From positions 287,644 to 351,643 of the forward strand of contig JACQEP010000010.1 of NCBI GenBank assembly GCA_016200485.1: DNA of 64,000 nt. The letters run 5' to 3'. Both the position numbers and the translations under genes were made by a program. Below the pieces are notes generated by a model. It saw nothing but the letters and a program-made list of their open reading frames with translations. It was not told the origin of the DNA and made no database searches. Shown here piece after piece: positions 5,447-64,000 of the stretch (position 1 is the first letter of the stretch; each line of letters begins with the position of its first letter). Source of the DNA: Gammaproteobacteria bacterium. GTDB taxonomy: Bacteria; Pseudomonadota; Gammaproteobacteria; Tenderiales; Tenderiaceae.

Positions 5447-5550
5447 AAAAACTCGCAGCTACTCAACTCACACTGCTGGGGATGATAACTTGGGATTCTA
5501 CGAGGGATAAGGTGAGGGCGCCAGCCCTATCGATGAATCAGGTTCCCTAG

Positions 5551-5693
5551 CAACCTGTTGAAAAAACGCGCTAAGGGGCACATCGCGGCGTTGAAAACGG
5601 ACTCAAAATGCTCATTTACGCCGTATAAACTCCGCTTTTCCGCCCGCTCCCGTCTCGCGCTACATCCCCTGATCACGTTTTTTCAACAGGCTG
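5551..5693. repeat. MITE-like element with 18-bp terminal inverted repeats CAGCYTGTTGAAAAAACG
   Basis: caacctgttgaaaaaacg at 5551-5568 and cgttttttcaacaggctg at 5676-5693. The same TIR type (cagcttgttgaaaaa) bounds the element at 40220-40359. The right TIR overlaps the last codons of ptsI. Confidence 0.5.
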
Positions 5694-22686: not shown

Positions 22687-23074
22687 TTACAATAGCCGCC
22701 TTTCAATAACGATAAAAAAAATGGGTAGCAAGACCATAGAGAGATTAAGACCAAAGAGATGATGCCTGATGTCTTTAAGAATTATCCAAAATGGCTGAAA
22801 TCGACACACATTGGACCATTCGAAAATATCCTAGGGAATTGGGAAAAGTAGCTCTGACATCTGAATTTGTCTGAGCATTCTTTTCGCCGACGCAATCGGT
22901 TAACCAGCAATAGGACTTTCTTTTCGTCAATTACCCATATAAAATGAACGGAAAAATAATACCCAAAAGCACCACTTTTCACACACATTGCACGTAATTG
23001 TGCTGGATATCGACGGCCGATCTAGCGGTGGAGCTGATTGTGATGCGTGTCACCATAACAAACTGGTAGCAGAG

Positions 23075-46220: not shown

Positions 46221-48563
46221 ATGCCCATCAAAAAAATTCTTAAATACACTGGCGGTGCCATTGGCACTCTCCTGCTACTCATTGTCCTCGCAATCGCGGC
46301 GATACACTTGTTTTTTGATCCCAATCAACTAAAACCTCAGATCAGCGCCGCTGTCAAAGATGCCACGGGGCGCGAACTTACCATTAGCGGCGATATTGGG
46401 TTATCAGTATTCCCCTGGCTCGGCATCGAACTGGGCGCGGCTTCGCTGAGCAATGCACCGGGATTTGACAACGAGCCGTTCGCCAAGATCGATAAGGCGG
46501 AGATCAAGATCAAACTGCTGCCCTTGTTAAAACATGAAGTACAGATGAAAACTGTGGCACTCAATGGCATGGCCATCAATCTTGCCATCGCCAAAGATGG
46601 CACCAGCAACTGGCAAGACATCATGCAAGCACTTGCCAGTAACAAAGCCAAACCTGAGCCCGCCAAACCTGCTTCTGATTTCACCTTGGCCGCGATCGCC
46701 ATCAGCGGCCTGACAGTCAGTAACGCCAAAGCAGTTTACGATAACCAGCAAACTCAAAGCCGCTACGCGATTGAAAAACTAAACCTCAGCACCGGCCCGG
46801 TCGCGCTTGAAGCACCCATTGATTTCAAACTCGATGCCGATCTGAGCAGCAGCAAACCCAAGGCCACGGCCAACATCAAACTTGCCAGCCGTATCCACAT
46901 GGATCTGCCTAACAGCAAGTTTCAGTTGGAACAAACCCAACTTGATGTCAGCTTTGATAGTCCGGCGCTTAAACAGCAGGGCCAATTACAGATCGCCGGC
47001 AACATCCAGCTCGACACCGCGCAATCTCACTATCAAATCAAACCCGCCGATATTGGCTTGAAATCAAACCTGTTGCCAGGAGCACTGCGTCTCCACACCG
47101 ATATCGATGCCGATATGCAGGCCGGCAATGCCCATCTCGACAATCTGCGGCTTGAGCTGGCAAACATCACCGCCAATGGCAGCATCGCCGTCACTGGTCT
47201 CAATAGCGAAATTCATTATGAAGGTCAACTCAAAACGGCTGAATTCAATCCCCGGCAGACGATGCAAGCCCTCGCTATTGAAGCGCCTAAAACGGCGGAC
47301 GAGAAAGTTTTGCAAAGCGCTCGAACCGAACTTGCATTTGCGGGCGACTTGAACAATGCCGAGTTGAAACGCTTAATACTTAAACTCGATGAAACCACAC
47401 TCCAGGGCCAAGCCTCGGTACATAACTTTAGTGTTCCTGCATTAACATATGAACTCACTATCGACGCTATCGATGCCGATCGTTATTTGCCGCCCAAGGC
47501 TGATAAATCCGCTACGCCACCACCGACACCCGCCAGCGCGGGCGCAGCTGCCGCAACCTTGCCGCTGGTTACCTTGCGCAAACTTGATATCGACGGCAAA
47601 GCTTATATCGGCAAATTAAAAATATCCAACCTGCGACTCAATGACATTCGCACCACACTCAAAGCAAAAGACGGCGTGATCAAGTTAGCGCCTGTCTCTG
47701 CCAATCTCTATCAAGGCAGCTACCTGGGCGAGACACAAATTGATGCCCGTGGCGACACACCCAAAGTCAGCCTCAAGGAATCGCTGCGCGGCATTCAGGC
47801 CGGACCGTTGCTCAAGGATTTTATGGGCGACGACATGATCAATGGCAAAGGCAGTCTGGAGGCTAATCTGACTGCAGAGGGACTGACACCCGCCGAGATC
47901 ACCAAAACACTCAACGGTCAGCTACAGCTCAGCTTCGCCAATATTTCAATGAAGGGATTAAACATTGCTGCCAAGGCACGCGAGGCGCGCGCCAAACTCA
48001 AGCGTGAAACCGCTCCAAAAGCAACCGAGGCCCGCCCTACCGATTTCAGCGAAGTGAAAGCCTCTGTACAGGCTCACAATGGCGTACTGACTAACAACGA
48101 TCTCAGCGCCAAGGCACCGTTTGCGCGCATTGCAGGTGCCGGCACCGTCGATTTGGTGCAAGAACAGCTGGATTACAGGGTCAACGCCAAAATCGTCGCC
48201 AGCAGCGAAGGTGAAGGCGGTGCTGATTTGAATTTTCTTAAAGGATTAACCATTCCAGTACGCATCAGCGGCCCATTAAAGGCGCCGAAATTCGATTTGC
48301 AATACGACGATATGCTGAAAGACAAACTGACGCAGGAAAAGGCTGAGCTGAAGGAAAAGCTCGATGCCAAATTACAACAGGAAAAAGCCGCATTACAGGA
48401 AAAACTGGATAAGGAAAAAGCCGCTATTCAGGAACGCTTGAAACAAGAACAACAACAAGTTCAACAAAAACTTGAACAAAAAACTGAACAGAAACGCGAA
48501 GAGATTAAGCAACAGACACAAGACAAGCTAAAGGAAAAGCTCAAGGGTTTTCTCAACAGGTAA
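46221..48563 (+). CDS. asmA: AsmA family outer-membrane assembly protein with C-terminal KEKL-type coiled-coil repeat tail
   Basis: 780 aa with an N-terminal TM anchor and AsmA-like N and C regions. The last ~90 aa are low-complexity (QEKAELKEKLDAKLQQEKAALQEKLDKEK...). Confidence 0.8.
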   Translation: MPIKKILKYTGGAIGTLLLLIVLAIAAIHLFFDPNQLKPQISAAVKDATGRELTISGDIGLSVFPWLGIELGAASLSNAPGFDNEPFAKIDKAEIKIKLLPLLKHEVQMKTVALNGMAINLAIAKDGTSNWQDIMQALASNKAKPEPAKPASDFTLAAIAISGLTVSNAKAVYDNQQTQSRYAIEKLNLSTGPVALEAPIDFKLDADLSSSKPKATANIKLASRIHMDLPNSKFQLEQTQLDVSFDSPALKQQGQLQIAGNIQLDTAQSHYQIKPADIGLKSNLLPGALRLHTDIDADMQAGNAHLDNLRLELANITANGSIAVTGLNSEIHYEGQLKTAEFNPRQTMQALAIEAPKTADEKVLQSARTELAFAGDLNNAELKRLILKLDETTLQGQASVHNFSVPALTYELTIDAIDADRYLPPKADKSATPPPTPASAGAAAATLPLVTLRKLDIDGKAYIGKLKISNLRLNDIRTTLKAKDGVIKLAPVSANLYQGSYLGETQIDARGDTPKVSLKESLRGIQAGPLLKDFMGDDMINGKGSLEANLTAEGLTPAEITKTLNGQLQLSFANISMKGLNIAAKAREARAKLKRETAPKATEARPTDFSEVKASVQAHNGVLTNNDLSAKAPFARIAGAGTVDLVQEQLDYRVNAKIVASSEGEGGADLNFLKGLTIPVRISGPLKAPKFDLQYDDMLKDKLTQEKAELKEKLDAKLQQEKAALQEKLDKEKAAIQERLKQEQQQVQQKLEQKTEQKREEIKQQTQDKLKEKLKGFLNR

Positions 48564-50030: not shown

Positions 50031-50990
50031 TCACGACGCTGCCCCAGGTGCATCCTGGGCGCAGCGAAATCCCACATCCGTGCTTACCGCCGACGGGTCT
50101 GCCTGACCGCGGCGGGCTGCGCGGAAAAAGTAGCTGATCGCATAGTGGCCAACGCCGGCGCCACCGCCTTTAATCACTTTGTGGATGCCGCCATAGAATT
50201 CACTCTTGAAGGTCGCGCCCGGATAGGCTTCATACCAATCCGCCACCCACTCCGAGACGTTACCGCCCATATCCATCACTGAAAAGGGAGAGCGATCATC
50301 GGCAAAACTCCCCACTGGCCGTAACTCAACACCACTGTCATCATTTTCACCGGTATTAACGCGGCTTGAGTCCCAACTCTGACCCCAGGGATATTCCAGG
50401 CCATCCGTACCACGCGCAGCCTTTTCCCATTCGCCTTCACTCGGCAGTCGTTTCTTTTTCCAGCGGCAATAACTGGCAGCGTCATACCAATTCACCGCCG
50501 TCACCGGCAATGGATCGCGTTGACGTTGAATTTTTTCCAGTTCCGCCACTAAGGCATCTTTATCCAGCGCGCGCGTGTCCTGATCAAGATGAAAATACTC
50601 GCGCGCCACCCATTGCAAGGTTTCAATGCGGAAAGAACGCAACTTATCATCGCGCACGTTGTAACCATTTTGCACCCACAGCGCAGGCTCCGCCGTACCC
50701 GTGGCGTGAACAAAAGCCTTGTAGTCAGCATTCGTCACTTCCAGACGATCAATATAAAACGCCTTTAGCTCAACCTTGTGTTGCGGATGCTCGTCCAGAT
50801 ACATCGGTTGCCGAAAACCGAATTCCTCCGTCAACTTGGCCTCATCGACCCGATTACTCCCCATCACAAATTCGCCCGCCGGGATCAGCACCATGCCCTG
50901 CGGTGGCGGTGCTGGTGGCGGCGCTGACTCACACCCCGCCAATCCCAACACCAATGAGCACCACAAAATTACCTGGCGTCGCGCGCGCAT
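50031..50990 (-). CDS. formylglycine-generating-enzyme (FGE/SUMF1/EgtB/PvdO) family lipoprotein
   Basis: Lipobox LAGCES. FGE-sulfatase fold motifs (VTNADYKAF..., RLPSEGEWEKAARG, GGNVSEWV, GFRCA). Confidence 0.8.
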   Translation of the reverse strand: MRARRQVILWCSLVLGLAGCESAPPPAPPPQGMVLIPAGEFVMGSNRVDEAKLTEEFGFRQPMYLDEHPQHKVELKAFYIDRLEVTNADYKAFVHATGTAEPALWVQNGYNVRDDKLRSFRIETLQWVAREYFHLDQDTRALDKDALVAELEKIQRQRDPLPVTAVNWYDAASYCRWKKKRLPSEGEWEKAARGTDGLEYPWGQSWDSSRVNTGENDDSGVELRPVGSFADDRSPFSVMDMGGNVSEWVADWYEAYPGATFKSEFYGGIHKVIKGGGAGVGHYAISYFFRAARRGQADPSAVSTDVGFRCAQDAPGAAS

Positions 50991-52018
50991 CGAAACCCAA
51001 AGCTTTCGTTTTTGGTACGAGGATGGAAGAAACTGCGATTAAAGACCGGCGCCGAGATGCCGCATTTGTAAAATGAACAATCCCACCACGAACCACCTTT
51101 CAGGACTTTATATTTTTCACCGTAGTTTTCCGTGATCCGCTTATTACCGGGATAGGGCTGATACCAGGAGCTGGTCCACTCCCAGACATTACCGGACATA
51201 TCGTAAAGCCCATACGGACTCTTGCCCGACTCGAAGGCCCCCACCGGTGTGGTGTCGCCCTCGACCTTGAGCGCCGCCCAGCGCACCGGCGTATTGGCCC
51301 GCTCAATACTGAATTCATTGCCCCAGGTGAACATCTGCCCGTCCGTGCCGCGCGCCGCCTTCTCCCACTCCTCCTGTGTCGGCAAACGCTTGCCCGCCCA
51401 CTCGCAATAGGCCTTGGCATCATCCCAGGTCACATAGGTCACCGGATGGTCTGCCTTACCCTCAGGGTAGGTGCGATTCACAAAATGACTGGGCGACTTA
51501 TGCTGGGTGGCGTCGTTGAACTGCTTGTACTGGAGATTGGTCACCTCGAACTTATCAATATAAAAGGCAGGCAGGGTTTCTTCATGCTGCGGCCCCTCAT
51601 CAGGCAGGCGAAAATCCGTGCCCATGATGAATTTACCCGCCGGGATCAACACCATCTCATTCGGCTGGGCACCGCGCTTGGTCCCCGGATAATAGATCGG
51701 CAGACTCATCCCAGGCCCCTGTCCCTCGACCTTCTGCGTCGGCTGCTCCTTGCGTACTGCCGACTCCATCTGCGCCAGGGCAGCCTTAAAATTCGCCTTG
51801 ATACCCTTCTCGTTATGGCACTCCAGGCACTCCTTGGCCATCGCCTTCTTGAACAGCTCGGTATTGGCCTCCTGATGGCAGCCCACACAGCCATTCAGGT
51901 CCTCATGATGGAAGCGCACAATCTTTTCAGGCTGGCCAGCGGCCTCAACCCCCATTGCCAAGCTCAGCCCGGCCAATACCGCCACGATCCTCCAACCTGA
52001 CTTCCGCACCCGCCGCAT
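50969..52018 (-). CDS. dihaem cytochrome c – FGE-family fusion protein
   Basis: A signal peptide is followed by two CxxCH motifs (CVGCH, CLECH). After about 100 aa the same FGE fold motifs as the downstream paralog appear (RLPTQEEWEKAARG, GNVWEWT, GFRCARD). Confidence 0.75.
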   Translation of the reverse strand: MRRVRKSGWRIVAVLAGLSLAMGVEAAGQPEKIVRFHHEDLNGCVGCHQEANTELFKKAMAKECLECHNEKGIKANFKAALAQMESAVRKEQPTQKVEGQGPGMSLPIYYPGTKRGAQPNEMVLIPAGKFIMGTDFRLPDEGPQHEETLPAFYIDKFEVTNLQYKQFNDATQHKSPSHFVNRTYPEGKADHPVTYVTWDDAKAYCEWAGKRLPTQEEWEKAARGTDGQMFTWGNEFSIERANTPVRWAALKVEGDTTPVGAFESGKSPYGLYDMSGNVWEWTSSWYQPYPGNKRITENYGEKYKVLKGGSWWDCSFYKCGISAPVFNRSFFHPRTKNESFGFRCARDAR

Positions 52019-52141: not shown

Positions 52142-52217
52142 GCCCAAGTAGCTCAGTCGGTAGAGCAGGGGACTGAAAATCCCCGTGTCGGTGGTTCGAT
52201 TCCGCCCTTGGGCACCA
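52142..52217 (+). tRNA. tRNA-Phe (anticodon GAA)
   Basis: GCCCAAGTAGCTCAGTCGGTAGAGCAGGGGACTGAAAATCCCC...GGTTCGATTCCGCCCTTGGGCACCA; this is the canonical Phe cloverleaf. Confidence 0.9.
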
Positions 52218-52525: not shown

Positions 52526-52564
52526 ACAAAAAAAGACGAACCCCAGATGAGGATGGGGTTCGTC
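52526..52564 (-). terminator. rho-independent terminator of the 52691-64000 minus-strand gene cluster
   Basis: Hairpin gacgaaccccatcctcatctggggttcgtc followed by an 8-nt U-run on the minus strand. Confidence 0.55.
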
Positions 52565-52690
52565 TTCACGAAGACAACTCACAGACTGTAGCTAAACTAT
52601 AAGGGGTAGCCTGTTCTTTGCAAATTGCTTCGAAAACCAATAATCCTTTATTTTGAAATCCTAAACAGGCAATTAACAAAGTCAGGTCAA

Positions 52691-54397
52691 TTATTGCTTA
52701 CGCGACAATCTAAATACCATAGGCAAGCCAAACAGAAACAAGCCAAGGAAATTTAAAGCACCCCCGCCACCTGCGCCGTCACTGCCAGCCGATGCAGCAA
52801 CACTGCCACTGCTTTCAACTGCTGTCGAGGTTGTAGCGCTCGAAGTATCCGGCGAAGTGTTATTCGACTGCGTATAGAAATCCGGAATTTCATAGGTACC
52901 GACAATTGTTTTCTTGAATTCGTCACCCACAAATACCGAAGCAACGTCCATCTGCTGTTCAATCGCACCTAAATCACAGGCAGCTCCGACTCGGCCATTA
53001 CCGAGCTGATCCTGCGTCAACTTACAATCCTGACCCTGATTGATTGCCAAGCTAGTCGACTTCAATGGGAAGTGAGCATTTCCCGGAACACCACTATCGG
53101 CAAGCGTTTCAAGACCAGCGATATTGGCGCCAGTAATAATCAGCGAGCTAGTTCCCTTCAGAGATTCGACTTTACACTCCGTCAAATCACCGATCAGGTT
53201 ATTCCCTGCCACCAAAATCATGCTCGGGTAGTTGTTACTCTGTTTATACATATCAGGACTACGAAGATCCGTATCGTTAAATCCACAATCTGGACCCTTG
53301 GCCGTAGAATCATTACCTGCAATTAGATTGTTTTTGAGCGTGACGATACCCGCATCCGCGTACACGCCGCCACCGCCCTCAATGCCGGCATGATTTCCAC
53401 TCATCGTGCTGTTTTGAATGTCAATCAAACCACCACCATAGAGACTTTCGTCGCCATTCAGTCGCGGCTCAGAGCCATAAATGGCCCCTGCATGCAACAA
53501 GCCATGATTATCATTAAAGGTTGAATTGACGACTAGCAACTTACCCTTGGCGTTCTCTATTGCGCCGCCACAATATGAAGTGTTGCTAATAAATGTGCTA
53601 TCGATAACTTCCATATACCCAATGGAGTTTTCTATCGCACCACCGTCCGATTGCGTTGCCCCTACCACATTGCCGCTATCATCTTTGGTTGGTGAGGTAA
53701 AATTCTTTTGGAAAGTACTACGCTTAATACTTGCGGTACCCGCATTATTAAAAATCGCACCCCCATCGCTATCCCAATTTCTAGTAGTGTGATTGGCCCA
53801 AAAAATGCTGTCACTGACCGTGAGTTTGGCATTAGGACTATTGGCAATAGCACCTCCAGTTGCTGCTGAGTTACTAAAGAACTTGACTGATTCAACGACC
53901 AGCTCACCTTCGTTCTCAACAGCGCCTCCACCAATCTGCTTATCAACAATATTGGAATCCATATAGTAATCGAGCGAACCGCCGCTGAGATTCAGATTAC
54001 GTAGTGTCAGCTTGGCGCTGGCACCAACATGAAAAAAACGGAACTGGTTTTTGGCAGCACCATTTCGTTGCAGCAGCGTCTTATTCATACCCTGCCCTTC
54101 GATGGTTAGCTCACCTTCTATCGGAAACGCTGAGTACACATCACTGCCGATTCCATCCACATCCCCCAACACAAAGGAAGCTTCTGCCATTTTGATGACA
54201 TCCGCGACCGGAGAGGCATTCGCCTTAATCACAGCCTCCTTCAGCTCACCCACGGTAGAGACCGTGTATACCTCAGCATGTACTGACGTTGACATTACCG
54301 CCGCTATCGCAGCCGAAATAGCCGTTAAACCGATCCCTGACCTGCCCCCACGAGCAAGATAATTTAATCCACCCATTACACCCCTCCTGCCTATCAT
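52691..54397 (-). CDS. Pmp-like right-handed beta-helix repeat protein with GlyGly-CTERM-type sorting tail
   Basis: A signal peptide (…VMSTSVHAEV) is followed by repeated GGAI/FxxN beta-helix rungs (GGAIANS, GGAIFNN, GGAIENS, GGAIENA, AGAIYGS). The tail is GAGGGGALNFLGLFLFGLPMVFRLSRKQ. Confidence 0.65.
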   Translation of the reverse strand: MIGRRGVMGGLNYLARGGRSGIGLTAISAAIAAVMSTSVHAEVYTVSTVGELKEAVIKANASPVADVIKMAEASFVLGDVDGIGSDVYSAFPIEGELTIEGQGMNKTLLQRNGAAKNQFRFFHVGASAKLTLRNLNLSGGSLDYYMDSNIVDKQIGGGAVENEGELVVESVKFFSNSAATGGAIANSPNAKLTVSDSIFWANHTTRNWDSDGGAIFNNAGTASIKRSTFQKNFTSPTKDDSGNVVGATQSDGGAIENSIGYMEVIDSTFISNTSYCGGAIENAKGKLLVVNSTFNDNHGLLHAGAIYGSEPRLNGDESLYGGGLIDIQNSTMSGNHAGIEGGGGVYADAGIVTLKNNLIAGNDSTAKGPDCGFNDTDLRSPDMYKQSNNYPSMILVAGNNLIGDLTECKVESLKGTSSLIITGANIAGLETLADSGVPGNAHFPLKSTSLAINQGQDCKLTQDQLGNGRVGAACDLGAIEQQMDVASVFVGDEFKKTIVGTYEIPDFYTQSNNTSPDTSSATTSTAVESSGSVAASAGSDGAGGGGALNFLGLFLFGLPMVFRLSRKQ

Positions 54398-54437
54398 TTT
54401 GAGTTATTGGCCTGCTTTTATAAACACATGCCCACGG

Positions 54438-54755
54438 CTAAAACGCCAGAATCATCTCAATTCGCTTGGTCAGTGCATTGACGTGAAAAATGCCAAACTG
54501 ATTCACGGCCGCATCATCCCTTGGAATCAACAAAATTCCATCGCCACTTTTATTTTCGCTATCTGAGCCATCTCTGGTCCCGAAGTTAACGCTCGGAATT
54601 ATTGGCGCCTCGATTACCTGCGCTCTTGGGTCACTTATAGTATTTATTGAGTACTCCTTGGCCTGCACCGGCATTTCCAGCGCAAACACCCCCACAACTG
54701 TTATGACTGGCAAAACCAGCCATAATTTGGCCTTGCGGCCAAAACACCCCCCCAT
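54438..54755 (-). CDS. hypothetical small secreted protein
   Basis: 105 aa with a signal peptide (MGGCFGRKAKLWLVLPVITVVGVFALEMPVQA) and no recognisable domain. It is spaced tightly between neighbouring cluster genes. Confidence 0.4.
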   Translation of the reverse strand: MGGCFGRKAKLWLVLPVITVVGVFALEMPVQAKEYSINTISDPRAQVIEAPIIPSVNFGTRDGSDSENKSGDGILLIPRDDAAVNQFGIFHVNALTKRIEMILAF

Positions 54756-54835
54756 ACATACCCCCTCATCTTGATCTATTTCGTAATTAAGCCTCTAACG
54801 GGCCATTTTTATCTTTATAATTTATTAATGGTTGC

Positions 54836-55675
54836 TTATTCGCCTGATGAAGCCTGCACAAAATTCGGCATCCCCTTCTCTAATACTCGCTTACTGAAAA
54901 TATTATCCCGCACGCCGACATTAACCTGAACGTCTGTCATGTCGTATACCGCCGACACCTGGCTATTCGATTTCTTTACAACGACGGTACGCCAAACCCA
55001 GGCATCATCGACCTTTTCCCACTTAATGAACTGTTCCTTGCTAACCTGGTTGGTCTTGTCATAATAATCAACACGCCTTTCAAGGCAGGTATCCCAGTCG
55101 CCAGTCTTGCTAAACCAACTCACGCGCTTGCTATAGGTCGGATCGTTCTCTCGCGGCGTACTTTCTACTAAATAAAAGTCTCGCCCCTCATGATTTTTCA
55201 CACCAAGGTATGTGTGGATGTCTTCAGCCAGACCACGCACCCGCAAATCTTCATCGTTGACACCCCAATCCATGTTTTTGGGATCACGCTGCGACACGCG
55301 ACGCACCATGTGCGTTTCCGGAAGATAAACCCACTGATCCGCTGCCTTCCCGCTGCTTTGTGTGTAGGCCCAGCGCATGAAATTAATGCCGCGATTATGG
55401 GGTGGAAACTCAGAGAAAAGAACGGTTTTATCGGTGACATCACCGACATCGCCGTCGTAACTTTTCCAAAAGCGGAAAAATTCATGATTGACACGCTTAC
55501 CTTGCTCATCGGTCAAGGTTACTTTCAGCCGCGAACGCTGATCCTCACCCGCGTATTTGTAATAACAGTGTTTGACAATCTCGTCGCCAGTCAATTCCTC
55601 GGCATGAGACACGACCATACATCCGAGCGCGACCAACGCCGCACATCCGGTTCTAGCTATCGCGTTAATACGCAT
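54836..55675 (-). CDS. LolA-like 'outer-membrane lipoprotein-sorting protein' family (PF17131-like) periplasmic protein
   Basis: A signal peptide precedes motifs recalled for this family: WVYLPETHMVRRVSQRD and a following acidic segment. Confidence 0.5.
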   Translation of the reverse strand: MRINAIARTGCAALVALGCMVVSHAEELTGDEIVKHCYYKYAGEDQRSRLKVTLTDEQGKRVNHEFFRFWKSYDGDVGDVTDKTVLFSEFPPHNRGINFMRWAYTQSSGKAADQWVYLPETHMVRRVSQRDPKNMDWGVNDEDLRVRGLAEDIHTYLGVKNHEGRDFYLVESTPRENDPTYSKRVSWFSKTGDWDTCLERRVDYYDKTNQVSKEQFIKWEKVDDAWVWRTVVVKKSNSQVSAVYDMTDVQVNVGVRDNIFSKRVLEKGMPNFVQASSGE

Positions 55676-55909
55676 ATGATTTCCTCATCTCTTCGCCACC
55701 TTCTGCGAGGTGCGCGTTTTTCCACGCTTACATTATTTTTATAATTATTTTTTTATTTGCATGTCCGCCGCAAAAATGAATCATCTGGTTGTCGGATTTT
55801 CTCAGTATATAGAAACTGATGGGGCCAAAAGATGACTAAAATATGACCAAATGGTCATCTTATGCCGCTTTGTACGCTTACAGGGATTCCCGACCAATCA
55901 CTATTCACT

Positions 55910-57013
55910 TCAAGGTGTTAGGTCCAGAACCGCCTCATCAATTCGAACCGGGGCGTAGTCCTTGGGTGACAACTGGCGCAACAGTTTCTCGGGAACGATC
56001 TGGTACTCCAGCCAGACACGCACTCTCACGGCCCTGGCCATCACTGGCGCGAGCAATTCTTCGCGCCGCTCACCTGGTCGCAAGGTGGTATCAATTATCT
56101 TGTCCAGAGCCCGCATCCCGCCCTCCGAGGCAAGATAGTCATAACGATATACCCGCTCCTCTGCGGCCAGCACCGCCCCGGCAGCGTCTAGAAACTCAGC
56201 CTTCAGCATCAGCTTATTGGGATGAGCACCGCCCGTTGGAAAATGATGCCCCACCGCTTGATTGATAACCGTCACCACAATCTTGCCGGCGACTTGTTTA
56301 AGCTCTAATTTGGCCGCTCCTTTGAGCAATGGAGAATCCGCGTGTCCGCCGGGAAAACGATGAGATGCGTGTTGAGACTGAGCCGAACTGCTACTTGGCG
56401 CACCGTCGATCTTTGGCATATGGCAATCAGCGCATTGCACACTCTGTTCGGCGTATTGACTACCGCGCCACTCTTCATAAGTACGCTCCAACGCAACGCC
56501 ATTAGGCGCGATATCGCGATGACAACCTGCACACAAACTGGAATCAAGAAAGTGATCCCCCTGTTTAGTGAGATGTGGTGCGAACGAATTCTCGCGGCCA
56601 GGACCATAGATGATATTTCGCGAATCGTAACTCAGTTCATGACCATATTGCCCTTCGCGCACTTTGCGTACCGCATGACAGGTGAGACAAGTCACGCCAT
56701 CTTGGCGCTGCGGGCCAGCGCCAACATTAATTTCAGGCGCATGACATCGCTGACAAGCGCGGGGATCTAACGGGGGGTTATTGGTCGCCGTTGCATATTT
56801 CGCCGCCTGACTTTGCCAACGCTTAAAATGGGCCTGGAAATTAGGATTGCTATTGGCGCGTGCCATCCAGGACGTTTGCCATTCTTGATAGATTTGCAAA
56901 TGACAAGCGCTGCAATCGCTACTCTCCGTTACTGCAGTGGCACGCGCCAAAGAGGTCACGAACATTGCCATCAAACCTAGCAACCACGCGCCGCGAACGA
57001 AATAATTGGACAT
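55910..57013 (-). CDS. secreted pentahaem c-type cytochrome
   Basis: A signal peptide and five CxxCH motifs (CSACH, CQRCH, CLTCH, CAGCH, CADCH). The final ~130 aa carry no haem motif. Confidence 0.8.
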   Translation of the reverse strand: MSNYFVRGAWLLGLMAMFVTSLARATAVTESSDCSACHLQIYQEWQTSWMARANSNPNFQAHFKRWQSQAAKYATATNNPPLDPRACQRCHAPEINVGAGPQRQDGVTCLTCHAVRKVREGQYGHELSYDSRNIIYGPGRENSFAPHLTKQGDHFLDSSLCAGCHRDIAPNGVALERTYEEWRGSQYAEQSVQCADCHMPKIDGAPSSSSAQSQHASHRFPGGHADSPLLKGAAKLELKQVAGKIVVTVINQAVGHHFPTGGAHPNKLMLKAEFLDAAGAVLAAEERVYRYDYLASEGGMRALDKIIDTTLRPGERREELLAPVMARAVRVRVWLEYQIVPEKLLRQLSPKDYAPVRIDEAVLDLTP

Positions 57014-57016
57014 TAT

Positions 57017-58846
57017 TTAGTGGTGGCGCCGCCGCGCCATATTCCAGAGCAATAGGCCAGCAGATAACCAAAATTCGGCACCGCCGCCGCCTGCGGCAGA
57101 TTCTGGCGCATTAGTGGAGCTCACCTTATTCGTATTATCTACTTGCCCGCTCTTGTCAGATGGCACAACATTTCCTTGTGACGAAGTAGGGTCCGGGGTA
57201 ACACTGGAACCTGGATTAGGAGTACCGAAAATGCTCTCAAAGGCTCCTCCATTACCGGCAGTGTAGTTAGTAATTTTTTTCTCATCATCCGAAATTGCAA
57301 CCGGGCACACCTGACCAGACGTCACAGTCACATCGTAATATTCAACAGCACCGATTGAACATCGCTGGCTCCGCGATTTTCCCAATTGATCTTTGATTAT
57401 ACAGGTGGCGATATTACCCGCCCCATAAACAGCACTATTAACCGTTTCTATCGGCAGATGCGCACTACCATTGGCCGCAAACGAACGGCAACTCGCCAAC
57501 CCAGGCTTTACCGCCAGCAGATCTGAATTAACCGTCAACATGTGTGGCTGACATACAGAAAACTCCCCCAGCAAGTTGTTACCCAAGGATGTTATCCCGA
57601 TATCGGTATTATAATTGGACAACGCGGTGAAACACTCGCGCCCCTTCGGATCGCTATTACCTGAGATCACGGAATTTTTTAGCTCAACAAATCCCCATAG
57701 CATCGCCAATCCACCACCACCCAGCCCCATGCCACTATTGGGATCGACAAGCACGCCTTCGGAAACATTTCCGCTGACAGTGACATTATTTAGCTTCATC
57801 TGGGATAGTGCAGGATTACTGTATTCCTCACTCGAGTTTGACGCAATAATGCCCCCGCCTTGCCCCATAGTATAGTTACCATAGATCGTTGTATTACTGA
57901 CATTCAAGTTTCCAATGCCGTTGCCTATCCCCCCGCCGCCGAGACGGGAAAAATTGCCAACAAAGCTACTGTCATCAATATCCGCATTCCCTTTTTCATT
58001 AAAGACACCCGCTCCCTGTCCGCCGGTGATATTGGCAGAGAACGTTGAACGGCGGACGATTAATCGTCCTAGAATAGCGGGCATTATTGCCGTGGCACGG
58101 TGTTGTTTATAATGCGCATCGTTATAAATTCCTGCGCCATCGATGGCATAACGCGTCCGGTTATTAGTGATAAGGCTATCTTCAACTTCGACGTATCCGC
58201 CGTCATTGCGAATCGCGCCGCCACAGTTTTCAGATTTATTATCGCGCAATATGCTATTACGCACGAATAATTGGCCTCGAATCTCCGGGCCATTCTCGAC
58301 TTGTCGGATGCCAAGCACATAAACACCGCCACCCGTATCCATCGGGTGATCGTTATTGATACAGCGATCATCGCACGTTGTTGAACCCCCGCGGAGTGTT
58401 AAGCGCTCTAACGTCAGTTTTCCAACAGGCGCCACATGCATAATTCTGAATTTAGGCACACCGGCTGTAGCATCATCCCGTTGAATTATTGTCTGCGCCG
58501 GACCATCTCCCAATCCGCGCAGCGTGACATCTCCGGTAATGGCAGGCAGTGCGTTATCACCCTCGACATGATCTGTAGCCTGAATAAAGGTATAGATACC
58601 TGCTTCAATCTCGATCACCGCGGGCTCGCCCGCCGCATTCGCCGCATTGACAGCATCGATTAACTGCTGCTCTGGCGTTTTAGGATTTGCCAGCACTGGC
58701 ACATGAAATAACGCCGCCGCCTCTACACCACAGGAAAATTGCAGGCACAGCATTGCCACTGATATCACTGATTTTATTTTTGCCGAAGCAGAAATCTCAC
58801 ACTGGCGGTTGCCTTTAAAACTATCCCACTGACAAAACATAGACAT
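57017..58846 (-). CDS. Pmp-like beta-helix repeat protein with GlyGly-CTERM-type sorting tail (paralog of 52691-54397)
   Basis: Repeated GGxI/N-x-S/T rungs (GGAIRND, GAGIYND, GAGVFNE, GGGIGNG, GGGIIAS). The tail is AAGGGGAEFWLSAGLLLWNMARRRHH. The start is set at Met 58846 with a GAGGT RBS; the listed ORF extends to 58885. Confidence 0.65.
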   Translation of the reverse strand: MSMFCQWDSFKGNRQCEISASAKIKSVISVAMLCLQFSCGVEAAALFHVPVLANPKTPEQQLIDAVNAANAAGEPAVIEIEAGIYTFIQATDHVEGDNALPAITGDVTLRGLGDGPAQTIIQRDDATAGVPKFRIMHVAPVGKLTLERLTLRGGSTTCDDRCINNDHPMDTGGGVYVLGIRQVENGPEIRGQLFVRNSILRDNKSENCGGAIRNDGGYVEVEDSLITNNRTRYAIDGAGIYNDAHYKQHRATAIMPAILGRLIVRRSTFSANITGGQGAGVFNEKGNADIDDSSFVGNFSRLGGGGIGNGIGNLNVSNTTIYGNYTMGQGGGIIASNSSEEYSNPALSQMKLNNVTVSGNVSEGVLVDPNSGMGLGGGGLAMLWGFVELKNSVISGNSDPKGRECFTALSNYNTDIGITSLGNNLLGEFSVCQPHMLTVNSDLLAVKPGLASCRSFAANGSAHLPIETVNSAVYGAGNIATCIIKDQLGKSRSQRCSIGAVEYYDVTVTSGQVCPVAISDDEKKITNYTAGNGGAFESIFGTPNPGSSVTPDPTSSQGNVVPSDKSGQVDNTNKVSSTNAPESAAGGGGAEFWLSAGLLLWNMARRRHH

Positions 58847-58853
58847 TACCTCG

Positions 58854-59594
58854 TTAGCGCTTGAGCGGCGGTTGCCGCAGAGCATTCTCGACTTCCTGTC
58901 GTCGTTGTTGTCGAAGCCGGTAGCGTTCCGGGTCTGATTCGCGCAGTTCTAGATCTTCTTTTTCTATTTCTTTAAGTGTCTGCTGAAATTCCAGCTCATC
59001 TTCTTTGCGATCCTGTGCATGACCACGTCGACGTTCTTCGAGTTTTTTGCGTTGCGCTTGGGCACTATCGAGCACATATTGGCGTTGAGCCGAGGGAAGA
59101 TTTTGGAGTCGCAGATTCCAGCGCTCATGCAGGCGAGTTCCCTGTTGCGCAACGCCGGCCTGATTCATGGTGCGGATTACTGCTTCCTGTTCCAGCGACA
59201 TCACTGGCACCAGTGCCGAGGTATCGCTTTTACCTGATGGCAACAAACGAGCACCAATCAGCAGCGACTTGGAATTTGGTTTCTTGCTTGAATATTGATA
59301 AATCGTGTTTAAACCACGGGTAATACGCCGGATACCTTCTTCCAGGGATTCATCTTTGAAATTGGCGCTTACAGTTCGATCGACCGCTGGATCTATCATG
59401 ACTTCAATTCCGGAAACGAACGCAATTCGTGTCATGATTGTCTTCAGTGCAACATCCTGCGCCTGAATGCTCAGCCTGTCCTGCTTGAGATCATAGCGAA
59501 TTTGTGGATTTTGCACTGAAACGGCAGCACTGAGTACGCCGCTCCAAAGCAGGACCCCCACGGCATACAATCTGGATATTGAGCTGATTTTCAT
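58854..59594 (-). CDS. secreted protein with STN-like N-domain and charged coiled-coil tail
   Basis: Signal peptide. The N-domain (DLKQDRLSIQAQDVALKTIMTRIAFVSGIEVMIDPAVDRTVSANFKD) resembles secretin/TonB STN domains. The C-terminal ~80 aa are rich in R/E/Q and predicted coiled coil. Confidence 0.45.
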   Translation of the reverse strand: MKISSISRLYAVGVLLWSGVLSAAVSVQNPQIRYDLKQDRLSIQAQDVALKTIMTRIAFVSGIEVMIDPAVDRTVSANFKDESLEEGIRRITRGLNTIYQYSSKKPNSKSLLIGARLLPSGKSDTSALVPVMSLEQEAVIRTMNQAGVAQQGTRLHERWNLRLQNLPSAQRQYVLDSAQAQRKKLEERRRGHAQDRKEDELEFQQTLKEIEKEDLELRESDPERYRLRQQRRQEVENALRQPPLKR

Positions 59595-59689
59595 GGCTTA
59601 TTTAACGTGACAGCGCGAAGGATCAGAAGCAATATAATATTGCTCAGTTCCTTCGCGCCGCTATGTCTCTGCCTTAGCTTATGCCGATG

Positions 59690-62185
59690 TTACTTACAAA
59701 CACCTGCACTGCAAACACCACCCACCGCGACACCCCCGCTTGCGCCGACACTTTGGCCAGTACCACCGGTATAGCCAAATGTGGTTTGGCTGCTGGCGGT
59801 AACTTTGGCAGAACCTGCCAAGCTATAAAGATCGATCAAACCACCGCGACCACCGGCTGAACCCGCGACTGCGGGATTGGCATTACCACCCTTAGCGTTA
59901 ATGACAGCTGCTCCGTTATCCACCAACTTTGGACTCACGATAGTTACCAGCGCCGCCGCATCACCGCCACGGTTACGGCCGTTACCACCATTAGCACTGA
60001 TATTAACAGTATTATAGGCATCACCCAACTCAGTCAGTAGTGAGACATTACCGGCATTACCACCACGACCGCTATTTGCGCCATTGTCATCGGCGCCGTT
60101 GGCAACGATTGCATTATTGTTGCTTACCTGATTATAACCCCAGAGCAACACCGATCCTGCATTAGCGGCAACGGTATCAGTGATCGCAAGTCCGTTGCTA
60201 ACACCACCGCTGGTATCGATTGCACCCTTGTTCACGGTATATTCCATCGTCGGAATACTTGGACCAAGAATCGGATAGAACACGACGTCAAACATGCCGC
60301 AGTAATATTCAGTTTCCAGCGTTACATCACCACCAACACCGCCTTTGGCAGGAATATTGGCTGCATTAGCAAGCACGCTGCCACCCTTGGCAATGATTTT
60401 TGCATCATTGCGCACGTCACCGCCTGGCGTCAGGAACTGGGCTGCCGTGTTGCCGAACTGCGTCATCATGCCGACATCACCTGCATTACCGCCGTGATTA
60501 CCATCACCACCACTCACATTAATTTCGCGATACCCCAGCAAGGACAAATGCTGGTCAAGAGAGTGTAAGCGCGCATCAAGCGCAATCTTGACGAAGCCGC
60601 CATCACCGCCATTACCACGCCCTGCTGCTGCAGCATGACCGCCGGAGGCATTAATATTCCCGGAGAGCTCAATATGCCCCACAGTCTGCCAAGCACGGGT
60701 AATATGGCCATAATAGGCACTGATCGTAACGTCACCGCCGTAACCAGCGCTGGAACTCAAGCCGCCAGTAGACCCCCCGACCGCAATCAGATCACCACTG
60801 TTGGCCAATGCCACTTGCATCACCATATTGCCGTCGCGAACACCGCCACCGTAATCTTTCAGCGTAATATCGCCAGCATCACCACCTTGGCCGCCATCGG
60901 TATTACCGCCAGAGGTGATGATCTTACCGCTATTCTTAAGCGTGCCCACCTGAACCGTTTTAATGGTGACGTCGCCACCATCACCACCGGCCTGAGTACC
61001 TTTGCCGCCATTGGTGGTGATGTTGCCGGAATTCAATAGGTCACCGACCGTGGCCAGCAGTTTCACTGCACCGCCTACGCCACCCGTGCCGCTATTGCTA
61101 TCACCGCCGGAGGCAATGATATCGCCGCGATTTTCGATACGGCTCTGCGCCTCTAATCGGACATTGCCGCCATTCTTGCCAGCAAGACTAGACGTCTTGA
61201 TGGTGCTAGCGCTCAGAATCGAGAAATCGGTAACAATATCGGCACTGCCTGCCTCGCTCTTACTGTTGTTTCCGGCAAGATCGATCACACTGCCAACATC
61301 ACCGAAATAATCAGCTGCGATAATCTGCAACCCACCACGCCGGTTACTTGCATCAAACGTAGTTACAGTGCCTTGATTTTGAAAATCGTTGATCAGAATT
61401 ATGTTGGCGTACACACCCGCATCGATACCGCCACGATTCAACCCCAACGTCAGGGTAGTGCCAGGCTTGACCTGGATGCCGGTCACCGGTGGTTCGTCTG
61501 CAATAGTGGCATTGCCATCAGAAATATAAACGTAGTTATTACCGAGCACCATATAGGCAACACCATTAGCTGGTGCCGAGTTGACCACCGGAATCGTACT
61601 ATTTTGACTGATGATTAGTGGATTTGATCCGAGATTAGCATTAGTGGTATTGGTCGCCGTAAACGTCGTCACGGCTTTAGTAAAATTACCATTTAGATCC
61701 GGCGCCACAACTTTCAGCCCACCCATACCACCGGGCTGGAAGATATCGACGCAACCGCCATTCCCTCCGTGACCACCATTGGCACCGCCACGTCCGCCAC
61801 TGGTCGCGATGTAATAACCGGTCTGATTCCAAGATTTTTCGTTGGCATCCAATACCCCACCCGCATCGGCACTAATGTAGGTATCGGAACTCAACCCGCC
61901 CGAACAAGTGGTTGCCGCTTCCGCTCTATCGCGCGACACATTACTGAAGCCGTTATTTTCAGGACCGGGGTTGGCATTCGGATCGATGCTATTCGCAGTG
62001 TTAGAACTGTTAGCATTAGAACCACTTGGCGACGTAACCGTGGTGTTGCTCGGCGTTGCTGCGTCTTCACCGCCGCCGCAGGCAGCCAGCAACACACTGC
62101 TCGTAATTATTACCGCCAATGGCAGTAACTGAAAACTGCGAACGGAACGCAAACCACCTTTATCACCCAATACGAACATACTCAT
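59690..62185 (-). CDS. 831-aa glycine-rich tandem-repeat lipoprotein (putative surface beta-roll/beta-helix protein)
   Basis: Lipobox LLAACGG. At least 10 units of ~30 aa of the form SG-x-I-x3-GG-x5-GG-x-GGDV-T-I/L (GGKGTQAGGDGGDVTIK, GGNTDGGQGGDAGDITLK, GGDGNHGGNAGDVGMM, and others). Confidence 0.6.
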   Translation of the reverse strand: MSMFVLGDKGGLRSVRSFQLLPLAVIITSSVLLAACGGGEDAATPSNTTVTSPSGSNANSSNTANSIDPNANPGPENNGFSNVSRDRAEAATTCSGGLSSDTYISADAGGVLDANEKSWNQTGYYIATSGGRGGANGGHGGNGGCVDIFQPGGMGGLKVVAPDLNGNFTKAVTTFTATNTTNANLGSNPLIISQNSTIPVVNSAPANGVAYMVLGNNYVYISDGNATIADEPPVTGIQVKPGTTLTLGLNRGGIDAGVYANIILINDFQNQGTVTTFDASNRRGGLQIIAADYFGDVGSVIDLAGNNSKSEAGSADIVTDFSILSASTIKTSSLAGKNGGNVRLEAQSRIENRGDIIASGGDSNSGTGGVGGAVKLLATVGDLLNSGNITTNGGKGTQAGGDGGDVTIKTVQVGTLKNSGKIITSGGNTDGGQGGDAGDITLKDYGGGVRDGNMVMQVALANSGDLIAVGGSTGGLSSSAGYGGDVTISAYYGHITRAWQTVGHIELSGNINASGGHAAAAGRGNGGDGGFVKIALDARLHSLDQHLSLLGYREINVSGGDGNHGGNAGDVGMMTQFGNTAAQFLTPGGDVRNDAKIIAKGGSVLANAANIPAKGGVGGDVTLETEYYCGMFDVVFYPILGPSIPTMEYTVNKGAIDTSGGVSNGLAITDTVAANAGSVLLWGYNQVSNNNAIVANGADDNGANSGRGGNAGNVSLLTELGDAYNTVNISANGGNGRNRGGDAAALVTIVSPKLVDNGAAVINAKGGNANPAVAGSAGGRGGLIDLYSLAGSAKVTASSQTTFGYTGGTGQSVGASGGVAVGGVCSAGVCK

Positions 62186-62250
62186 TTCTCCTTCATACCC
62201 GTATCAGATCCCCGTGAGGATCCGTTATTTTATAATGATTTTAGTATTTT

Positions 62251-64000
62251 TTATTTTTTGGTCGTTGTTGCAAATGGCCATACAGGCTTAGTGCCAAATA
62301 TGGTATTCCATGAATTTGGACCTGGCCCGCCATCACGATTAGCAGAACGGTTGGGTGCCGAAGTGTCGTTCACACGATCATAGGCTTGATAGTAAAAACG
62401 AGGTTGCGACTCTCCAGGACCATTAAAGACCTGGCCAAACCAGGTAACTTTAATATCGTCTCCCGCAACCCATCCTAGACTTCCACCACCATCTTTAGAA
62501 GATGTTGATGTGCCACCGGAAGTCAGCATGTCGCCCGCAATCTCACGCCGCACGAACATCCCTTGATCGGTACGTGACGAGAAACCAGTGCTCGACGCAC
62601 CACGTCTACCGAGGTTATAAGTTCCCACCTGCGTCTGATCAATATCCATCCAGAAACCGGTACGGTCGTTGTTTGCATCCAGATTCGCCTTATAGGCAAA
62701 ATCATTCTTGAACTCGAAGTACTCGCTCGCTATCTTGGTGGCGAAATGCTGCTCCAGATCGATATTCGGCTGGGTAGCACTATCACCCCAACCGGTACGC
62801 ACCACTGCGCGATCGGCAAAGCCAAACATACTATTGCCCACATCTCGCAACAGCATCTGGCTAATAATGCCATTCTTGGTTGCGTTACCCATTTGCACCA
62901 GTGACTCACTTGCAAAGGCAAGATTGGCCGGTGTGCCCGTGGCATTACTATCGGTAATGATCAATTGGATATAGTCTTTGCCATCGCTACCCCTCAGCAT
63001 GCGTTGTAACATCCCTTCGCTACTCTGAGAACTAATACAGACACCTGCTCCGGGAGGACAAGCCGCAGAGATCACACCATTGCTAACACTCCAATTACTA
63101 AATTGAACTGGCGTGTCTGTTACCGTAGAAGACGACAAAGTAACGGGGGCCGCCTGGAACTGAACATCGGCCAAGGTCGATGGAGCAGGAGTTGTTGTGC
63201 CCTTACTATCCTTGGACGACCCTGCCCCGGTTGTCCCCTTGGGCAATGCCGGCATGACGGGCGCGGCGCCGAACGTCGCGGTATTCCAGTCCAAAGGCGC
63301 GGAGCTGCCATAGGCCATATACCGTGATGGTGCCTGCCCACTACTCAAATTTTCATAAGCCTGAAAGCTCATCTCCAGATCTTCCCAACCCGGCGTCCCT
63401 TCATTGCTTTCCAGCTCTTCCCAGTGATTCATTACCTGACCGGCCCAGGTCACAGCCACCGTTTCACCGGCATTCCAGGTCACGCTGCGGCCGGAAGGCA
63501 GAGTACCAGTACCCGCACTCTTGGACATATCACCGCTGCGCAAGCGGCGGGTGAAGCCTTGAACCTCATAGGGAGTGGTCGTGGAAGAACATTTGTCGCA
63601 CTTGCCGACACTTTGATCCTTACCCCATTGCTGACTGAATAACTGGCCAATATCGTAGGCATAGCCGGAACGGACGCCCAGCTCGCTGATATTTTCCTCA
63701 AATTTATACGTCGACAGAAACTTGGTATCAAAAGCAGTGCCCGACTCACTAATAGATTGATTCGTCACGATGCTCGGTGAGGTTGTATCAGTGCTCCACT
63801 TGGTCTTGATCGTGGAATCCATCGACAATGCCGAATTGGTTTTATCCCATTTATTGACAGAATCATCTTTAATGACTTGATGATTAGCGATGCCCCCTAG
63901 CGGGCCAGACGTGTTGTCCGGATTACGGCGTACGAAATTCTCAGTGGAAAAATTCAGCGCGCCAGGAAGCCCGCTGGCTCCAGTCTCGATAATGATGGTC
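62251..64000 (-). CDS. large Ser/Thr-rich protein, 5' end beyond window (partial)
   Basis: The frame stays open upstream of the listed TTG/Met start through the window end (…TIIIETGASGLPGALNFSTENFVRRNPDNTSGPLGGIANHQVIKDDSVNKWDKTNSALSMDSTIK…). No domain is recognised. Confidence 0.5.
   Translation of the reverse strand, partial: TIIIETGASGLPGALNFSTENFVRRNPDNTSGPLGGIANHQVIKDDSVNKWDKTNSALSMDSTIKTKWSTDTTSPSIVTNQSISESGTAFDTKFLSTYKFEENISELGVRSGYAYDIGQLFSQQWGKDQSVGKCDKCSSTTTPYEVQGFTRRLRSGDMSKSAGTGTLPSGRSVTWNAGETVAVTWAGQVMNHWEELESNEGTPGWEDLEMSFQAYENLSSGQAPSRYMAYGSSAPLDWNTATFGAAPVMPALPKGTTGAGSSKDSKGTTTPAPSTLADVQFQAAPVTLSSSTVTDTPVQFSNWSVSNGVISAACPPGAGVCISSQSSEGMLQRMLRGSDGKDYIQLIITDSNATGTPANLAFASESLVQMGNATKNGIISQMLLRDVGNSMFGFADRAVVRTGWGDSATQPNIDLEQHFATKIASEYFEFKNDFAYKANLDANNDRTGFWMDIDQTQVGTYNLGRRGASSTGFSSRTDQGMFVRREIAGDMLTSGGTSTSSKDGGGSLGWVAGDDIKVTWFGQVFNGPGESQPRFYYQAYDRVNDTSAPNRSANRDGGPGPNSWNTIFGTKPVWPFATTTKK

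Follow-up and report, generated by a model that had tools for sequence, protein, structure and literature searches.

In a 64,000-nucleotide stretch of DNA (hereafter the window), part of a 434,804-bp contig of the uncultured groundwater metagenome-assembled genome (MAG) 'Gammaproteobacteria bacterium' (locus tags HY272_), two minus-strand genes encode paralogous beta-helix proteins, here called helix 1 and helix 2, whose C-termini carry a genuine, conserved tripartite module. The best-matching known class of these tails, a choice that sequence comparison partly supports, is GlyGly-CTERM. We lean, with little better than even confidence and largely by analogy, toward reading them as divergent GlyGly-CTERM signals, processed by a rhombosortase, on Sec-exported beta-helix surface proteins related to Rhombotarget A (RbtA). 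The domain anatomy of the two proteins, their paralogy, the conservation of the tail, its resemblance to the class and the relationship to RbtA were observed directly.

Paralogy and conservation of the C-terminal tails

Among the window's 151 stop-to-stop open reading frames (ORFs) of 100 codons or more, taken over all six frames, helix 1 and helix 2 alone combine a Gly run with an uncharged hydrophobic segment and a basic cluster at the end (features are listed in Table 1). Both minus-strand ORFs are present, with C-termini exactly as an earlier, preliminary description of the window had quoted them, and both are hypothetical proteins in the annotation of the Prokaryotic Genome Annotation Pipeline (PGAP). 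PGAP starts helix 1 at M8 (54376), giving a 561-residue product (MBI3772428.1, HY272_06995, 'hypothetical protein'); helix 2 likely starts at M14 (58846), as the preliminary description also had it, and residue numbers here follow the 622-residue ORF. Helix 1 and helix 2 are full-length paralogs, tails included: the alignment between them runs into the tails (BLASTP 27% identity, E 5e-25), and the helix 2 passenger aligns with that of helix 1 over its whole length. The N-terminal h-regions, read by eye, end VHA/E (helix 1) and VEA/A (helix 2), where the slash marks the putative cleavage site; the site in helix 1 was predicted by eye from the -3/-1 rule, and its A41 at -1 is an invariant column in a ten-sequence alignment (A1). 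No further hydrophobic helix was seen between signal peptide and tail, either in the sequence by eye or in the AlphaFold2 model described below.

The tail of helix 1 consists of four glycines (G543-G546), A547, a 15-residue hydrophobic stretch (L548-F562) and RLSRKQ, and the protein ends 22 residues past the Gly run, with its stop codon at 52691-52693. That of helix 2 consists of G599-G602, A603, E604, a hydrophobic stretch (F605-A617) and RRRHH. In alignment A1, G543 and G544 never vary, G545 and G546 reach at least 90% conservation, and the order of parts is passenger end (DQLG..R...CDLGAVE), Ser/Thr/Asp/Gly-rich linker, then Gly-Gly directly before the hydrophobic stretch. The linker of helix 1, low-complexity from about residue 510, has D492 as its sole near-invariant column; that of helix 2 has no conserved column in A1.

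Homologs carry the same kind of tail. A protein search with helix 1 returned one identical entry (P0001, beginning at M8) and eight close homologs (P0002-P0009, 74-31% identity), with the same tail type on all eight. Helix-2 orthologs in four related loci (L001, L003, L063, L064) also have it, keeping AGGGGA(E/D)(L/F)WL...RRR, and an exhaustive profile search added three more tail-bearing relatives (P0308, P0341, P0384). Because the tail is kept in 16 of the 16 orthologs and relatives collected while the linker varies, it is a functional module and not a chance arrangement; the sorting signal of Vibrio cholerae VesB is likewise joined to its passenger by an unstructured linker (PMC13393428). 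The tripartite layout (Gly run, hydrophobic helix, Arg/Lys cluster) that the preliminary description had assigned to both C-termini is thereby borne out, and it extends to all close homologs found. The tail-bearing family is restricted to a small group of gammaproteobacterial MAGs, Chromatiaceae-labelled or unclassified; searching genome contigs with the family alignment recovered two Chromatiaceae-labelled relatives and distant homologs, and the corresponding search of metagenome contigs recovered distant relatives only, none with the tail.

Probable class of the C-terminal signal and search for a rhombosortase

Isolated tails of 30-45 residues were scored against the hidden Markov models (HMMs) of NCBIfam, where the GlyGly-CTERM model TIGR03501 has a cutoff of 15.5 bits. 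Two homologous tails pass it, those of P0007 (21.4 bits), a protein 43% identical to helix 1 in an end-to-end alignment, and P0341 (16.3 bits). Other relatives fall below, namely P0002 (14.6 bits), the helix-2 ortholog in L003 (13.3 bits) and P0009 (11.2 bits); the last scores 17.6 bits against MprA_tail, a model of GlyGly-CTERM form with a cutoff of 19.7. GlyGly-CTERM is the only class whose model any family tail passes while keeping the class-defining motif. Both window proteins show the layout of the class (GGGGA, 15 or 13 hydrophobic residues, RLSRKQ or RRRHH, no Cys) and its export architecture (N-terminal signal peptide, no further transmembrane segment, read by eye). The paper that defined GlyGly-CTERM states that its HMM misses true examples, and its curation rule for sub-threshold tails extends to both window proteins via P0007 and P0341 (PMC3237569). 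Since both window tails fall short of the cutoff, it is homology that carries the assignment.

Several observations weigh against it. Tail 1 reaches 12.7 bits on TIGR03501 in an alignment that starts at its SDGAGGGGA motif, falling to 7.3 bits when more linker is submitted, and tail 2, with a hydrophobic stretch of just 13 residues, gives no match; full-length helix 1 also gives none, and short sorting-signal HMMs are easily masked by the bias correction of HMMER. The nearest models for tail 2 and several other tails are generic transmembrane-plus-RRR models of MYXO type, at a sub-threshold 12-15 bits; for tail 2 this is GC_trans_RRR (12.2-15.3 bits, cutoff 15.85). The tail is moreover confined to one kind of passenger: a profile of the 16 tails matched only these proteins among 3,478 ORF C-termini from the window and all fetched loci, and no carrier with an unrelated passenger was among them. 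Classic rhombosortase systems have several unrelated target proteins each (PMC3237569), and carriers from a single family are mildly atypical for a many-to-one sorting system. Nor is the enzyme nearby. No rhombosortase or other rhomboid was found by tblastn and HMM in the window or within 10 kb of the beta-helix genes in the related loci L001, L003/L008, L009, L063, L064 and L065; in rhombosortase systems with few targets an adjacent enzyme is the usual arrangement (16 of 21 cases, PMC3237569), and it is not seen here. The preliminary description had called both tails GlyGly-CTERM-like and had proposed TIGR03501 scoring as the check: the layout, the nearest class and the two passing homologs agree with it, and the scores of the window tails themselves do not.

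The rhombosortases used in these searches came from a search with a consensus-like seed, which yielded 2,191 matches, many of them named rhombosortase by their source; five that were checked scored 160-173 bits on TIGR03902 (cutoff 84), and 120 of the 2,191 served for tblastn and for building an HMM. The same two methods found no rhomboid-type gene in about 100 more distant loci. A rhombosortase has been reported in sulfur-oxidising gammaproteobacteria with no TIGR03501-detectable targets, Thioalkalivibrio sulfidophilus among them (PMC3237569), and such genomes leave room for divergent, HMM-invisible tails like these. In two MAGs (L061, 7324-10636; L062, 7337-10654) a rhombosortase gene directly follows glnD or overlaps it by 11 nucleotides (nt), in a conserved neighbourhood (rpsB-tsf-frr-uppS-cdsA-dxr / map-glnD).

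That the tails belong to another known class, PEP-CTERM/exosortase or MYXO-CTERM/myxosortase, is effectively refuted. The first of these was the fallback named in the preliminary description, and none of the 16 tails contains Pro-Glu-Pro or matches TIGR02595 (cutoff 16 bits). MYXO-CTERM (TIGR03901, cutoff 20 bits; TIGR03382, cutoff 15.85 bits) draws some weak matches, namely that of tail 2 to GC_trans_RRR and one of P0341 to TIGR03901 (21.3 bits), and the window tails score 12.2-15.3 bits against models of this type. These alignments begin only at model positions 4-8, past the signature motif, whose Cys is invariant in MYXO-CTERM (PMC11980579) and is present in none of the 16 tails. The missing Cys and the missing PEP motif exclude both classes. 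JDVT-CTERM and Synerg-CTERM were rejected on missing motifs and sub-threshold scores.

Quite improbable, in our view, is a lineage-specific signal, GGGG-A-x-[NW], that would be recognised not by rhombosortase but by a different enzyme, such as a GlpG-type rhomboid or a transpeptidase or intramembrane protease not yet described, and that would form a new pair with it. It would account for the failure of most tails, both window tails included, on TIGR03501 and for the similar scores of some on other transmembrane-plus-RRR models, but those matches cover only the generic Gly, transmembrane and basic parts, without the defining Cys or PEP. The restriction of the tail to one family in a narrow set of MAGs would also fit, as would the cleavage of a GlyGly-CTERM protein at a different site by a second rhomboid, GlpG (PMC11389362); however, no candidate membrane protease lies in the conserved eight-gene cluster or its flanks, and the two passing tails are most simply ordinary GlyGly-CTERM.

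If the tails are divergent GlyGly-CTERM signals, helix 1 and helix 2 would be exported by Sec with removal of their signal peptides, after which the C-terminal helix would hold each of them transiently in the inner membrane, the Gly run facing the periplasm and the basic cluster reaching into the cytoplasm. Recognition and cleavage would take place at the conserved GGGG-A: a putative rhombosortase, its gene lying elsewhere in the genome, would cut inside the Gly run, and the new C-terminal Gly would be joined to a glycerophosphoethanolamine-containing lipid. A type II secretion system (T2SS) would then probably carry the lipid-anchored protein to the cell surface, with the flexible linker as a stalk. 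The position and mechanism of the cut are proposed by analogy with V. cholerae VesB (PMC6219818), and so are the enzyme, the attachment to a lipid, the route of secretion and the location at the surface.

An uncleaved tail is another reading. The module might be a plain C-terminal membrane anchor with the Gly run as a flexible hinge, keeping the beta-helices in the periplasm, tethered to the inner membrane, where they could act, for example, beside the periplasmic pentaheme cytochrome and the LolA-like protein encoded in the same cluster. We hold this to be unlikely. It agrees with the sub-threshold HMM scores, with the absence of a sorting enzyme from the window and six related neighbourhoods, with the confinement of the tail to one protein family and with the periplasmic look of the cluster partners; yet a hinge has no need of a Gly-Gly that never varies and always keeps the same spacing to the helix among proteins that are 27-40% identical and whose linker varies freely, the tails of P0007 and P0341 lie above the trusted GlyGly-CTERM cutoff, and passenger homologs exchange this tail for bona fide sortase-type signals, as described next.

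The beta-helix passenger and its gene cluster

The passenger of helix 1 is of the RbtA beta-helix type, and RbtA is its closest solved relative. An AlphaFold2 model of helix 1 built from A1 (mean predicted local distance difference test score, pLDDT, 72.9; predicted TM-score 0.77) shows stacked short strands over approximately residues 43-500 and disorder over 508-568, with pLDDT below 50 from 508. Comparing this model with the PDB by Foldseek placed Rhombotarget A (9cdu/9cdv) in the top four positions (E 6e-7 to 7e-6; TM-score 0.41-0.48, normalised to target), followed by pectin-esterase and lyase-type beta-helices. A family profile searched against PDB sequences gave RbtA as its only significant match (E 4e-12), with the DQ.G..R...CDLGA.E motif aligned. 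RbtA, a surface protein of Acinetobacter baumannii 617 residues long, has a beta-helix behind its signal peptide, in the N-terminal part, then an Ig-like domain and, at the C-terminus, a transmembrane segment (PMC12643943); its NCBIfam model bears the name GlyGly_RbtA, and RbtA is named as a rhombosortase target. The preliminary description had considered such tails on Pmp-like beta-helices an unusual pairing, which was mistaken: the nearest solved relative, Rhombotarget A (TIGR04212), is itself a beta-helix protein named as a rhombosortase target, with a GlyGly-type tail, so the pairing is an established pattern.

Helix 1 also matches Pfam Chlam_PMP (PF02415; 25.3 bits, cutoff 20.6) and choice-of-anchor Q (NF041518; 33.8 bits over residues 429-482, cutoff 25), to which helix 2 scores 16.7 bits. 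The anchors of its homologs are diverse. Of the 120 word-indexed homologs that helix 1 has, 23 do not extend past the choice-of-anchor Q motif, ten have a Gly-containing transmembrane-basic tail (P0001, P0002-P0009 and P0107, the last with a Cys and JDVT-like in appearance), and six have other anchors, including LPSTG, VPTL (IPTL-like) and PEP-like tails and two archaeal tails. That one passenger occurs with interchangeable anchors adds to the case for the tail as a sorting module. Sixteen of the 120 (P0040, P0043, P0044, P0046, P0050, P0056, P0057, P0059, P0060, P0062, P0066, P0072, P0074, P0077, P0116, P0119) end 5-15 residues past the choice-of-anchor Q motif in a short hydrophobic (Y/F)LP(L/A/V)V(I/V)K sequence of YLPxV type, which could be another short C-terminal signal.

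Table 1. Features of the two beta-helix genes, their cluster and its boundary, in window coordinates.
Feature	Position	Strand	Description
Helix 1, full ORF	52691..54397	-	568 aa from first ATG; beta-helix paralog
Helix 1 signal peptide	54275..54397	-	aa 1-41, ...SVHA/EVY; predicted, read from sequence
Helix 1 beta-helix passenger	52952..54274	-	aa 42-482, right-handed
Helix 1 choice-of-anchor Q domain	52952-53113	-	aa 429-482, end of passenger
Helix 1 linker	52784..52951	-	aa 483-538; last ~30 residues Ser/Thr/Asp/Gly-rich, low-complexity
Helix 1 signature motif	52757..52783	-	SDGAGGGGA, aa 539-547; predicted cleavage region
Helix 1 hydrophobic stretch and basic end	52694..52756	-	LNFLGLFLFGLPMVF (aa 548-562) and RLSRKQ (aa 563-568)
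Helix 2, full ORF	57017..58885	-	622 aa from first ATG
Helix 2 signal peptide	58718..58846	-	aa 14-56, ...CGVEA/AALFHV; putative, from sequence and alignment of ortholog N-termini
Helix 2 beta-helix passenger	57335..58717	-	aa 57-517, ends in DQLGKSR...CSIGAVEYY motif
Helix 2 linker	57104..57334	-	aa 518-594; variable, low-complexity
Helix 2 tail	57020..57103	-	ESAAGGGGA (aa 595-603), E604, FWLSAGLLLWNMA (aa 605-617), RRRHH (aa 618-622)
Pentaheme c-type cytochrome	55910..57013	-	367 aa, five CXXCH, signal peptide; Pfam cytochrome families
LolA-like / TP_0789-like periplasmic protein	54836..55675	-	279 aa, MBI3772430.1, PF17131 (97 bits)
Small ORF	54438..54755	-	105 aa, signal-like N-terminus; between LolA-like gene and helix 1
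Gene C	58854-59594	-	246 aa (245-246 aa across contigs); faint STN-like match, charged C-terminal stretch
Gene B	59690-62185	-	831 aa (831-838 aa across contigs); Gly-rich lipoprotein, lipobox LLAAC
Gene A	62251-63828	-	at least 525 aa; L063 counterpart 687 aa
Terminator-like hairpin	52532..52567	-	14-bp stem and T run, ~125 nt downstream of helix 1; by consensus scan only
tRNA-Phe	52142-52217	+	just beyond cluster terminator

Helix 1 and helix 2 bracket part of a conserved envelope cluster of eight genes (52691-63828, minus strand) ordered gene A, gene B, gene C, helix 2, pentaheme cytochrome, LolA-like gene, an ORF of 101-105 residues and helix 1. The identical order in two Logan contigs (L063, 104-11671; L064, 1-11298) upholds the earlier placing of the two genes in one cluster, and L001 and L003 (369-12700), from Chromatiaceae-labelled MAGs and an ENA contig, have the same genes but with genes A, B and C in divergent orientation. 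The cytochrome (367-371 residues across the window, L063 and L064) adjoins helix 2 in all related loci; it starts 3 nt past the helix 2 stop codon, and helix 2, the cytochrome and gene C are 3-7 nt apart. Against NF040886 (ExtKL, a Geobacter multiheme family) it scores 75 bits, below the cutoff of 250. The LolA-like gene is conserved in the cluster across the related loci. The small ORF has no family match and has counterparts at the same position in L063 (9615-9932, 105 residues) and L064 (9251-9556, 101 residues); by eye, it looks like the cap at the N-terminus of the beta-helix proteins (AAVNQFGIFHVNAL versus AAKNQFRFFHVGAS), and its last residues are ...KRIEM(I/V)(L/I)(A/T)F. A pseudogene fragment was considered and rejected, given its conservation as an ORF in both contigs.

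Of genes A, B and C, only gene C has any Pfam or NCBIfam match, the faint one to STN. Every cluster product that could be read has an export signal; gene A in the window shows no obvious signal peptide, and it may be misread at its N-terminus, given the longer L063 counterpart. A domain-end motif, W-(N/D/Q)-x-x-FG-x-x-PV-x-P, occurs twice in gene A and recurs in two L009 ORFs (4274-5314 and 5382-6350) beside a related beta-helix gene, again with no Pfam or NCBIfam family match.

The hairpin and the tRNA-Phe bound the cluster. Its G+C content is approximately 0.47-0.48 over 52-56 kb versus approximately 0.53 elsewhere, and its flanks differ in every related contig, none of which has the tRNA. 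The low G+C, the adjacent tRNA-Phe and the differing flanks suggest that the cluster moves between genomic contexts.

The cluster as a whole invites a more speculative reading, which we consider very unlikely: an undescribed cell-surface redox module of uncultured groundwater and cave sulfur- or iron-cycling gammaproteobacteria, in which the two beta-helices, lipid-anchored and directed to the surface through either a divergent GlyGly-type tail or a dedicated new signal-enzyme pair, would scaffold or shield the multiheme cytochrome for extracellular electron exchange.

Elsewhere in the window, two adjacent FGE-sulfatase/EgtB-like genes (50031-52018, minus strand; Pfam 189 and 218 bits), the upstream one with an N-terminal extension holding CXXCH heme motifs, were rejected as cluster members: the tRNA-Phe and the terminator lie between, and the genes are absent from the related loci. 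A 780-residue AsmA-like protein (46221-48563, plus strand) scores 47.9 bits, against a cutoff of 50, on a Leptospira-type T2SS GspN model; recent work links AsmA-like GspN proteins to the transport of lipid-anchored surface proteins by T2SS (PMC12802150), and this one is probably a housekeeping AsmA. A 795-residue ORF (22988-25375, plus strand) has an N-terminal CDACHH motif and, by eye, RCC1-type repeats in its C-terminal half (...TWGNNYYGQLGIG...), with no NCBIfam match; local GC skew flips around 22-26 kb. MBI3772382.1 is rpoN.

Significance and comparison with known systems

If divergent GlyGly-CTERM is the right assignment, the rhombosortase system, in which experiments have mainly concerned Vibrio, with further reports from Shewanella and Acinetobacter, would reach uncultured groundwater and cave gammaproteobacteria. 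The standard HMM would then be missing tails of this kind, as the hypothetical-protein labels given by PGAP illustrate, which would help explain rhombosortase genomes without detectable targets; the surface proteomes of such MAGs would be predicted better with a tail profile specific to the lineage.

The Pmp autotransporters of Chlamydia (PF02415) share with the window proteins GGAI/FxxN-type repeats that form a beta-helix. Their C-terminal autotransporter beta-barrel is absent here in the Pfam scan, the NCBIfam scan and the AlphaFold2 model; the window proteins end instead in a single helix with a basic end, and their export route must therefore differ from that of Chlamydia Pmp. Within the same Pmp-repeat superfamily, choice-of-anchor Q proteins are like helix 1 in passing NF041518 and in the variety of their endings, with many alternative anchors or none, but helix 2 is sub-threshold, and the GlyGly-type tail is restricted to the nine closest of the 120 word-indexed homologs.

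Of GlyGly-CTERM proteins sorted by rhombosortase (RrtA/RssP; TIGR03501/TIGR03902), with VesB as the model, the window proteins have the C-terminal Gly motif, the short hydrophobic helix, the basic cluster, the lack of Cys, the N-terminal signal peptide with no other transmembrane segment and the unstructured linker before the tail (PMC3237569, PMC6219818, PMC13393428). They differ in their four-Gly run followed by Ala, where VesB has a Ser-flanked Gly-Gly, in the sub-threshold scores of both tails, and in that the carriers are paralogs and orthologs of one family rather than unrelated enzymes.

RbtA is the closest comparison: it too has a signal peptide, a right-handed beta-helix and, at its C-terminus, a membrane segment. 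Helix 1 scores just 33.2 bits on TIGR04212, for which the equivalog cutoff is 295, helix 2 gives no match, and identity to RbtA is 16-19%. Where RbtA has an Ig-like domain, the window proteins have a disordered low-complexity linker (in helix 1, residues 483-541 are poorly conserved with one short strand predicted). Helix 1 and helix 2 are not RbtA equivalogs, as the score is far too low and the disordered linker replaces the Ig-like domain, and their genomic context, the cytochrome cluster, differs as well. That link to a pentaheme cytochrome is the only part with the potential to lead to something new; the combination of beta-helix and GlyGly-type tail follows the RbtA pattern and is a divergent addition to an already known kind, not a surprise.

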